Shown here: positions 3 through 251 of the stretch, piece by piece
Layout of the letters: the number at the start of each line of letters is the position of its first letter
Numbering within the stretch: the stretch's first letter is position 1
DNA from: Escherichia coli
GTDB lineage: Bacteria; Pseudomonadota; Gammaproteobacteria; Enterobacterales; Enterobacteriaceae
Strand: one strand, 5' to 3'
Assembly (NCBI RefSeq): GCF_003334815.1
Contig: NZ_QOWO01000138.1
Length of the DNA: 253 nt
Notes under the pieces: model-generated
Seen by the model: only the letters and a program-made list of their open reading frames with translations
Databases searched by the model: none
What the model was told of the DNA's origin: nothing
Made by a program: the position numbers and the translations under genes

Positions 3-251
3 GAGAGAGCGTTGCCGCAGGCAACGACCCGAAGGGCGAAGCGCGCAGCGCTGAGTAATCCTTCCCCCACCACCATCACTTTCAAAAGCCCCGGAATTCT
101 CAAACGAATCCGCAATCAAATATTCTGCCCAAGCGGGGAAGGATGAGAAGCTTCGACCAAGGTTCGACTTGAGCGCCAGCGAGAGAGCGTTGCCGCAGGC
201 AACGACCCGAAGGGCGAAGCGCGCAGCGCTGAGTAATCCTTCCCCCACCAC
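3..251 (-). CDS. Hypothetical stop-free reading frame on the minus strand (fragment, open at both window ends); no recognisable product
   Basis: Minus-strand codons occupying plus triplets 249-251 down to 3-5 contain no stop over 83 codons. Translation: [83 protein letters not shown]. Plus-strand tca occurs only at 76, 82, 100 and 116 (all out of this frame); no tta or cta anywhere. Caveats: the 178-bp period is not a multiple of 3, so the two repeat copies are read in different frames; the second half is Arg-rich like off-frame GC-rich sequence; third-position GC is about 70% in the first 40 codons but about 53% in the rest; no similarity search possible. An ATG on the minus strand at plus 76-74 (MVVGEGLL...) is a possible start in a different frame. 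Confidence 0.15.
10..26. other. Perfect hairpin: 7-bp stem CGTTGCC / GGCAACG with 3-nt loop GCA
   Basis: Seen directly: 10-16 cgttgcc is the exact reverse complement of 20-26 ggcaacg, loop 17-19 gca. All seven pairs are Watson-Crick. No U/T tract follows on either strand, so it is not an intrinsic terminator. Function unknown. Confidence 0.45.
40..52. other. Hairpin: 5-bp stem AGCGC / GCGCT with 3-nt loop GCA
   Basis: Seen directly: 40-44 agcgc pairs with 48-52 gcgct, loop 45-47 gca. It lies in a GC-palindromic tract (gcgcgc, agcgct), so alternative registers exist. Function unknown. Confidence 0.35.
58..144. repeat. 10-bp perfect inverted repeat pair: ATCCTTCCCC (58-67) and GGGGAAGGAT (135-144), bracketing the AT-richer core
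   Basis: Seen directly: the reverse complement of 58-67 equals 135-144 exactly. Extension fails on both sides (57 a vs 145 g; 68 c vs 134 c). The left arm is inside the 75-bp repeat, so 236-245 is also complementary to 135-144. Biological meaning not established. Confidence 0.6.
188..204. other. Second copy of the 7-bp stem / GCA-loop hairpin (inside repeat copy 2)
   Basis: Identical sequence to 10-26, shifted by 178 nt. Confidence 0.45.
218..230. other. Second copy of the 5-bp stem / GCA-loop hairpin (inside repeat copy 2)
   Basis: Identical sequence to 40-52, shifted by 178 nt. Confidence 0.35.

Follow-up and report, generated by a model that had tools for sequence, protein, structure and literature searches.

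This locus raises the question of what kind of element a compact block of paired sequence represents, and whether selection acts on it as RNA, as DNA, or as a reading frame. The window (the whole stretch of Escherichia coli DNA analyzed, 253 nucleotides) carries within positions 10–52 a perfect 7-bp stem with a GCA loop (CGTTGCC-GCA-GGCAACG, 10–26) and a perfect 5-bp stem with the same loop (AGCGC-GCA-GCGCT, 40–52). The motif CGAAG is present twice (30–34 and 37–41), the first time in the context CCC-GAA-GGG (28–36). A preliminary description, made from the letters alone, gave all of these elements with exact coordinates and read them as a structured RNA module, or a protein-binding or recombination site, more than as coding sequence.

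The window is 100% identical to part of the E. coli K-12 tyrT operon, in K-12 MG1655 and in many other E. coli chromosomes, and a match to it is present in 4700 of 5426 complete genomes. The order in K-12 is tRNA-Tyr (tyrT), an RtT copy in the spacer, tRNA-Tyr (tyrV), and three 178-bp units that each contain an RtT copy. In the coordinates of the K-12 tyrT locus (L001), the tRNA-Tyr genes lie at 1841–1925 and 2135–2219 and the RtT copies at 1969–2100, 2266–2397, 2444–2575, and 2622–2753, on the same strand and downstream of the tRNA genes; RefSeq labels all four copies "RtT sRNA, processed from tyrT transcript". This layout, a tRNA and then RtT, recurs in other genera. Since the window takes in the final 75 nt of the second 178-bp unit downstream of tyrV and the entire third unit, positions 1–75 are identical to 179–253 (a period of 178 nt), and for this reason the hairpin block is found again at 188–230. 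A circular or satellite origin of the 178-nt period and a CRISPR-like array had been among the candidates and were dropped once the tyrT locus was identified.

A covariance scan of the window against all Rfam families (cmscan), a check that the preliminary description had recommended, returned the RtT RNA family, RF00391, for both copies. The complete copy at 122–253 scores 134.2 bits (E = 5e-30, model positions 1–130) and the 5′-cut copy at 1–75 scores 70.8 bits (model positions 57–130), both above the gathering score of 45 bits. Among other Rfam families up to E = 10, the scan gave only chance-level matches to HTT-AS1_3 (12 bits versus a gathering score of 70). The preliminary description had not recognized the block as a known RNA family, but the RtT score (134 bits versus 45) and the RefSeq annotation show that it is one. 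The window copies share sequence, locus, strand, and covariance-model score with RtT RNA (RF00391; E. coli rttR, b4425), and they share P1 and hairpin 1, which belong to the Rfam consensus structure. We conclude with high confidence that the flagged block makes up the middle of RtT RNA (gene rttR, RF00391), present once per 178-bp tyrT repeat unit, with conserved stem-loops inside it. The features of the window are as follows, P1 to P6 being the helices of the six-helix model examined below.

1–75, + strand: 3′ 75 nt of RtT in the second unit after tyrV (5′-cut RF00391 match; equals L001 2501–2575)
1–7, + strand: 3′ arm of P3 of the earlier copy
10–26, + strand: P4 copy 1, hairpin 1 (in the Rfam consensus structure; stem variants, variable loops)
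28–36, + strand: P5 copy 1, CCC-GAA-GGG, near-invariant; a local mini-hairpin, or paired with upstream CGACC/TTCG as in Rfam
37–55, + strand: P6 copy 1, hairpin 2 extended, C-GA-AGCGC-GCA-GCGCT-GA-G (covariation; absent from the Rfam consensus)
57–75 and also 235–253, + strand: AATCCTTCCCCCACCACCA, 19 nt that repeat the tRNA-Tyr 3′ end, CCA included (compared with tRNA-Tyr at L001 2135–2219)
58–67, + strand: 3′ strand of P1 of the earlier copy (inverted repeat)
76–121, + strand: start of the third unit (TCACTTTCAAAAGCCCC...), between the CCA end of the preceding copy and the RtT core (unit alignment; outside the Rfam match)
122–253, + strand: complete RtT RNA core of the third unit (RF00391, 134.2 bits; RefSeq ncRNA, L001 2622–2753)
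135–245, + strand: P1 closing helix, GGGGAAGGAT (135–144) with ATCCTTCCCC (236–245), a 10-nt inverted repeat, 100% complementary
143–172, + strand: tpr ORF remnant, ATG plus eight codons and then TGA (MRSFDQGST*; translation by eye)
147–165, + strand: P2 hairpin GAAGCTT-CGACC-AAGGTTC (147–153 with 159–165; RNAalifold)
168–185, + strand: P3 hairpin CTTGAGC-GCCA-GCGAGAG with internal tandem G·A/A·G (168–174 with 179–185; covariation)
188–204, + strand: P4 copy 2, identical sequence (188–194 with 198–204; repeat identity, covariation)
206–214, + strand: P5 copy 2 (206–208 with 212–214; as copy 1)
215–233, + strand: P6 copy 2 (215–222 with 226–233; as copy 1)

The identity of the RNA is already known: RtT has been described since 1991, forms a separate Rfam family, and is annotated in RefSeq, so that finding these hairpins here is ordinary. 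The tyrT locus was among the earliest E. coli loci to be sequenced, and Rho-dependent termination has been mapped inside its repeats. The first report of the 178-bp unit, repeated 3.14 times and with a 19-bp match to the tRNA end, is said to be that of Egan and Landy (1978). The gene rttR is encoded by one tyrT repeat unit, and only the first unit is reported to yield the characterized RNA (PMC3318445); the copies in the window come from the two units that follow it.

Judged from the sequence of E. coli, the pattern stands out only marginally. Among 2000 dinucleotide shuffles of a single 178-nt unit, 6.6% contain a perfect stem of 7 bp or longer and 4.7% contain at least four perfect stems of 5 bp or longer, and the folding z of block 10–55 is −1.3. 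When each hairpin is set against 200 dinucleotide shuffles, one reaches the −8.9 kcal/mol of hairpin 1 and 102 reach the −5.4 kcal/mol of hairpin 2. It is covariation across species that shows these hairpins to be real. Homologues were sought in one genome per species using a pattern from the 5′ part of RtT, outside the flagged block (GGRTGAGAANCTTCGNNNNAGGT), to avoid bias; this search returned 117 loci, nearly all in Enterobacterales. From about 100 loci we obtained 144 distinct full-length RtT cores (~119 nt), many of which are paralogous copies within one genome or come from close relatives, and aligned them with MAFFT (alignment A2).

The six-helix model (P1–P6) was tested by pair counts, by an alignment-free table of stems, and on a model-fitted alignment (A3). 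On the MAFFT alignment it scores above 500 of 500 shuffles on every measure and above every slid control: 85% of cells are paired versus 40%–44%, and 200 cells are double changes versus 4–39, cell counts that overstate the number of independent events because many copies are paralogous or from close relatives. The stem swaps are seen equally in the alignment-free table. Thus, in the covariation check that had been recommended on homologous copies, stem bases vary with compensatory changes across the 144 copies from about 100 loci; both hairpins are kept in this way, and the proposal of a structured RNA module is upheld. P3, P4, and P6 are the helices maintained by compensatory mutations, and their loops are free to vary.

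Hairpin 1 is P4, which is 97%–99% paired with three to six covarying pairs. Double changes are seen at three of its seven pairs on the MAFFT alignment, in which 14 short-stem variants are misaligned, and at six of seven on the model-fitted alignment, which leans towards its own model. The alignment-free stems include CGTTGCC/GGCAACG, CGTTGC/GCAACG, CGATGC/GCATCG, CGCGC/GCGCG, CGCTGC/GCAGCG, CGCTGCC/GGCAGCG, and TGTTGCC/GGCAACA, and they are capped by GCA, AAA, ACA, GTA, AAC, GAA, TTCA, TTTA, or GTCA loops.

Hairpin 2 is part of a longer helix (P6, 37–55), in which a covarying pair closes the base and a nearly invariant tandem G·A/A·G lies between this pair and the 5-bp stem. P6 is the strongest helix of the model. 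Its closing pair (37 with 55) is CG in 89 copies, UA in 50, and UG in five, and is never unpaired among the 144; the tandem G·A/A·G is present in 138–139 of 144, double changes occur at seven of eight positions, and the five inner pairs carry AU, UA, CG, and GU variants. Stems found here include AGCGC/GCGCT, GGCGC/GCGCC, GGAGC/GCTCC, GCAGC/GCTGC, GACGC/GCGTC, and GTCGC/GCGAC, with loops GCA, GTA, AAC, ATC, GAA, AAA, and TTTA. In about 50 copies a second tandem G·A lies inside the stem (GGAGC-GAA-GCGAC), and these are counted as "unpaired" cells. A hammerhead core, considered for the likeness of its "GA-stem-GA" arrangement, was rejected, there being no Rfam match and no CUGAUGA.

Two details that had been given weight in the preliminary description lose it in this comparison. 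The loops of both hairpins vary freely between species, so the matching GCA triloops are a feature of E. coli and are not conserved. The duplication of CGAAG is present as described, and its second occurrence is part of the base of the longer helix P6. Tandem Repeats Finder (TRF) reports 30–51 as 3.1 copies of the heptamer CGAAGCG.

The remaining helices are more uneven in their support. P3 shows double changes in five of seven pairs (outer pair UA in 81 copies, GC in 28, CG in 26), and in five sequences Watson-Crick pairs take the place of its tandem G·A. P1 has 95% of cells paired and one covarying pair (GC in 131, AU in 12). P2 has no covariation, with four invariant pairs and one position that is G·G in 102 of 144 copies, and it conflicts with the long-range pairing of the Rfam consensus. 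RNAalifold on the MAFFT alignment recovers P1, P2, and P3 and gives only a spurious 3-bp pairing in the flagged region, where the short-stem P4 variants were misaligned by MAFFT and GC-rich arms compete. We rejected the minimum-energy fold of the 119-nt E. coli core, in which the 5′ arm of P4 and the 3′ arm of P6 form one long hairpin, as the conserved structure: across copies 76% of its cells are paired, many of its pairs are unpaired in 40–112 copies, and neither its pairs nor its pair types exceed those of shuffles. Two observations fit the + strand, that of the tRNA genes: read from the opposite strand, the tandem G·A pairs would become C·U, and G·U cells are more numerous than A·C cells (85 versus 48).

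A more distant copy shows the same architecture. An RtT-like element beside tRNA-Gln in a Cellvibrionaceae MAG, from a different order of bacteria, scores 57 bits to RF00391 and carries, in the same order as in E. coli, TTCGC-GAA-GCGAA, CCC-GAA-GGG, and C-GA-GGCC-CGGAC-GGCC-GA-G, with unrelated stem sequences.

Between P4 and P6 sits CCCGAAGGG, which is exact in 114 of 143 copies, has its stem changed in only five, and also occurs with GCA, GGA, and GTA loops. Because it is nearly invariant, covariation cannot choose between a local mini-hairpin (P5), whose CCC-GAA-GGG fold is worth only −1.2 kcal/mol, and the pairing drawn by Rfam; neither P2 nor P5 is backed by covariation, and the Rfam consensus pairs their bases otherwise. 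RtT might, with its identity unchanged, fold in the middle as in the RF00391 consensus structure, the CGAA of CCCGAAGG pairing with an upstream UUCG and GGCG with CG.CC, leaving neither a local mini-hairpin nor a base for P6. This long-range helix has 96%–99% of cells paired in the 144 copies versus 41%–56% in slid controls, and the changes that are seen, G-C to G-U, are tolerated ones; the columns involved are so conserved, however, that a high paired percentage proves little. No pair is changed on both sides, and the long-range pairing of CCCGAAGGGCG is without covariation support in the 144 copies. Column 86 (C/U), whose Rfam partner is an invariant G, covaries fully with its P6 partner, column 105 (G/A), and no cell of this pair is unpaired. 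Moreover, 18 copies with a GCA-type loop break one Rfam pair, and in the Cellvibrionaceae copy, read by eye, two of the four outer Rfam pairs are lost while P2 can still be folded. We lean towards the local arrangement of CCCGAAGGG and regard the long-range fold as the less likely one, though one to be taken seriously. The consensus structure in the cmscan output lacks P6 and the full P3, both of which are added by the present comparison.

A protein-coding origin of the constraint has to be weighed against this RNA reading, as in the first unit the flagged sequence, identical there, forms the 3′ half, up to the end, of the annotated tpr ORF. Tpr (b1229) is catalogued as a "small protamine-like protein" (PMC3141248), rttR is transcribed together with tyrT and tpr (PMC3141248), and Altman et al. 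1981 is cited in later literature; the conserved block would then encode the arginine-rich C-terminus of Tpr and the palindromes would be incidental. An intact, open 29-codon tpr is found only in that first unit (L001 2287–2376). The window copies differ from it by premature stops, the tpr frame of the second unit ending at TAA (codon 6) and that of the third (ATGAGAAGC start) at TGA (codon 10, window 170–172), so that neither window copy is coding. Nor is the ORF conserved across genera: 106 of 144 copies stop after five codons, at least 25 codons are kept in only 21 of 121 ATG-starting copies (17 of 100 loci), those copies with long ORFs read the flagged region in different frames, and the P3 loop differs by 1 nt in length between lineages, which shifts the frame. 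Since the frame stops early, is rarely intact, and differs between copies, the conservation is not due to Tpr and the constraint is on RNA structure, which bears out the initial impression of noncoding sequence and makes the coding explanation highly improbable. We give just as little credence to an element acting as double-stranded or cruciform DNA, such as a REP-like, recombination, or protein-binding palindrome. The hairpins are perfect palindromes, they share with REP/BIME elements a GC-rich palindromic character (imperfect in REP/BIME) and a noncoding location, RepRanger lists rttR among REP-containing sRNAs (PMC12306157), and 178-bp units in tandem are therefore substrates for unequal recombination. 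Yet a search for other occurrences, with the 253-nt query (which would miss isolated single hairpins), found a median of three places per E. coli genome; K-12 has four, all of them the tyrT RtT copies. Unlike a dispersed REP family, to which it bears no likeness, the block is confined to one locus and covaries in the manner of an RNA: the stems are compensated while loops vary, and the helices keep G·U pairs and near-invariant tandem G·A pairs that are noncomplementary in DNA. The suggestion of a recombination or protein-binding DNA site thus found no support. The hairpins had also been judged not to be intrinsic terminators, and this is confirmed, as no T-run follows 26 or 52; a terminator scan of the tyrT repeat region (L001 1700–2950) gave no + strand site.

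It might also be argued that the hairpins have no function of their own and are leftovers of repeat duplication (a heptamer CGAAGSG repeated three times, a tRNA fragment with an insert), similar by recent descent and gene conversion. The 3.1-copy heptamer repeat at 30–51, the near identity of copies within one genome, and the fact that a function of RtT is not established in the literature would agree with such a history. It does not account for stems that differ between genera and stay paired via double substitutions while loops drift, nor for the same architecture beside a different tRNA in another order of bacteria (Cellvibrionaceae), and we consider it improbable, if slightly less so than a coding or a DNA-level origin. 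The reading of the block as the maintained, folded middle of RtT RNA remains the one we prefer.

In RtT, then, two independently folding, evolutionarily maintained stem-loops flank an invariant CCCGAAGGG, the ends of the RNA are clamped by P1, and the 3′ tail is an exact copy of a tRNA 3′ end. Across species this tail tracks the 3′ end of the neighboring tRNA, reading CCCCCGCCACCA where the tRNA has G, CCTTCTCCC in Pantoea, and ACCCCAGCCA beside tRNA-Gln; within P2, AAGGTTCGA matches the 5′ side of the T-arm of tRNA-Tyr. As in mimics of the tRNA acceptor and T-arm, the last 19 nt of RtT equal those of the adjacent tRNA, from the 3′ strand of the T-stem through that of the acceptor stem and the discriminator base to CCA. 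RtT differs from such mimics in having ~68 nt (P3 to P6, including the flagged block) where the T-loop would close. It also differs in P1, whose 5′ strand reaches no further than the T-stem and a portion of the acceptor strand, so that 8 nt stay unpaired. The RtT copies are not called as tRNA by ARAGORN, run on the tyrT locus.

These features suggest how the RNA might be made. The unit would be transcribed within the tRNA precursor, and its tail would let the tRNA maturation machinery define the 3′ end; because the end of the unit resembles a tRNA acceptor end, excision by tRNA-processing enzymes seems plausible. The GC-rich bundle of hairpins would make the released piece compact, nuclease-resistant, and stable. 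RttR is described in the literature as released from the tRNA transcript and has been tied to amino-acid limitation and the stringent response (PMC4986893; bioRxiv 10.1101/2024.07.17.603846). A growth-recovery phenotype related to relA was reported in 1991, and discrete release of RtT by processing of the tyrT transcript is attributed to Bosl and Kersten 1991, as cited in PMC3318445 and PMC4986893. Stress-related changes in rttR signal have been reported (including bioRxiv 10.1101/2024.07.17.603846), and one overexpression screen found RttR to be without a biofilm, motility, or fimbriae phenotype (PMC4606813). Among the papers listed by a literature search for RttR with Hfq and ProQ, none linked RttR to either. 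One further paper citing the tyrT locus, on pseudouridine, concerns an antisense RNA of tRNA-Tyr and not RtT, and was set aside. Among sRNAs derived from tRNA or rRNA precursors, 3′ETS-leuZ (PMC12306157) and rrA/rrB/rrF (PMC8144298) are, like RtT, stable by-products of the processing of stable-RNA operons; RtT differs in being tandemly repeated, in ending in a copy of a tRNA 3′ end, and in having no demonstrated base-pairing target or chaperone.

What the conserved middle is for can be addressed only speculatively. The invariant parts of the RNA, ACCCGAAGGG and the tandem G·A motifs, might provide a sequence-specific docking surface, whose partner would mediate the effect that RtT is reported to have on the amino-acid starvation response. 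That they form such a surface for a putative partner linking RtT to the starvation response is a tentative suggestion that may well prove wrong. Somewhat more doubtful still is the fuller proposal that P4, CCCGAAGGG, and P6, in which covarying pairs enclose the nearly invariant tandem G·A/A·G that has a counterpart in P3, together act as a conserved recognition module for a putative protein or RNA partner and thereby explain how RtT acts on the starvation response.

What is new here is limited to a refined secondary structure, which gains P6 and the complete P3 with their tandem G·A motifs, and to evidence against conservation of tpr. The comparison gives covariation support for a six-helix RtT fold, which departs from the curated Rfam consensus precisely in the flagged region, and the annotated tpr reading frame is not conserved. 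If the recognition-module reading is true, the absence of P6 from the curated consensus would mean that the structure model of the RtT family needs revising. This carries little weight as a discovery, but a better structure model is a useful start for work on RtT.

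The 5'-GA/3'-AG tandem mismatches in P3 and P6, two of the six helices (P1–P6) modelled for the RtT RNA (RF00391), are nearly invariant, being kept in 137–139 of the 144 distinct RtT copies aligned, and covarying Watson-Crick pairs lie on both flanks of each. They occupy these positions in the window:

171–172 with 181–182, tandem mismatch in P3
216–217 with 231–232, tandem mismatch in P6
38–39 with 53–54, tandem mismatch in P6 of copy 1

A third GA/AG tandem mismatch lies within the P6 stem in many copies, and five copies carry U-A and C-G pairs in place of the P3 mismatch.

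At the 3' end of RtT, the final 16–19 nt of each copy compared are identical to those that close the tRNA gene immediately upstream in the same genome:

window 57–75 and 235–253, tRNA-identical tails
L032 5475–5592, L013 8890–9006, L031 5604–5718, L116 1628–1742 and L093 2935–3054, copies in other genomes with tRNA-identical tails

The tail varies in step with its tRNA, reading ...CCCCCGCCACCA where tRNA-Tyr carries G, ...CCTTCTCCCACCACCA in Pantoea-type genomes, and ...CCTTCCACCCCAGCCA in a Cellvibrionaceae MAG in which RtT adjoins tRNA-Gln. Because the tails are identical to the upstream tRNA and change with it, sequence comparison points to either gene conversion or selection for a matching tRNA-like end.

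In one of the repeat units of Pseudocitrobacter vendiensis (L117 3187–3251), the RtT 5' part (GGGAAGGATGAGAAGCTTCGACCAAGGTTCGA) is fused straight to ATCCTTCCCCCACCACCA and the P3–P6 block is absent. This looks like recombination via the 9-mer AAGGTTCGA, which is common to RtT and the tRNA T-arm; read in the opposite direction, the P3–P6 block, which holds both hairpins of the preliminary description, acts like an insertion at a T-loop-like site.

The number of tandem units varies widely among genomes; L116 1447–2410 (an assembly labelled Enterobacter ludwigii) holds six copies in a row, of which five score identically, as against three units after tyrV in K-12. In several genomes the final copy is broken off past P2 or P3:

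L011 143–, cut-off copy at the array end
L021 3700–, minus strand, the same
L030 2350–, the same
L059 294–, minus strand, the same

Such copies run on into CCGGTGGCGCT...CTTACCGGGCCTAC-type sequence, and this appears to be a REP element that has inserted at the array end or beside it.

The minus strand of window 28–36, the P5 segment of copy 1, reads CCCUUCGGG, the complement of CCCGAAGGG, and includes a C(UUCG)G tetraloop hairpin, a very stable structure. Nothing in the analysis suggested that the minus strand is the one that functions at window 28–36; antisense RNA has been described at the nearby tRNA-Tyr in a preprint.

Enterobacterial-type copies also occur in assemblies labelled Chryseobacterium sp. 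18061 (L053; Bacteroidota) and Martelella alba (L049; Alphaproteobacteria), both probably mislabelled or contaminated. Pattern matches in Alistipes, Prevotella, Hyphomonas and Phormidesmis (L033, L041, L035, L067) are due to chance and are not RtT.

Within the K-12 tyrT locus (L001), the copy in the tyrT–tyrV spacer (1982–2100) belongs to a sequence class distinct from the copies at 2279–2753: it has GTG rather than ATG, C-G in P2 where those have G·G, and carries P6 in the form TGA-GGAGC-GAA-GCGAC-GAA. In Pluralibacter (L020), and apparently in other genera, the spacer again holds a copy of this class; since the class recurs in this position, the two classes seem to predate the genera, with no homogenisation between them.
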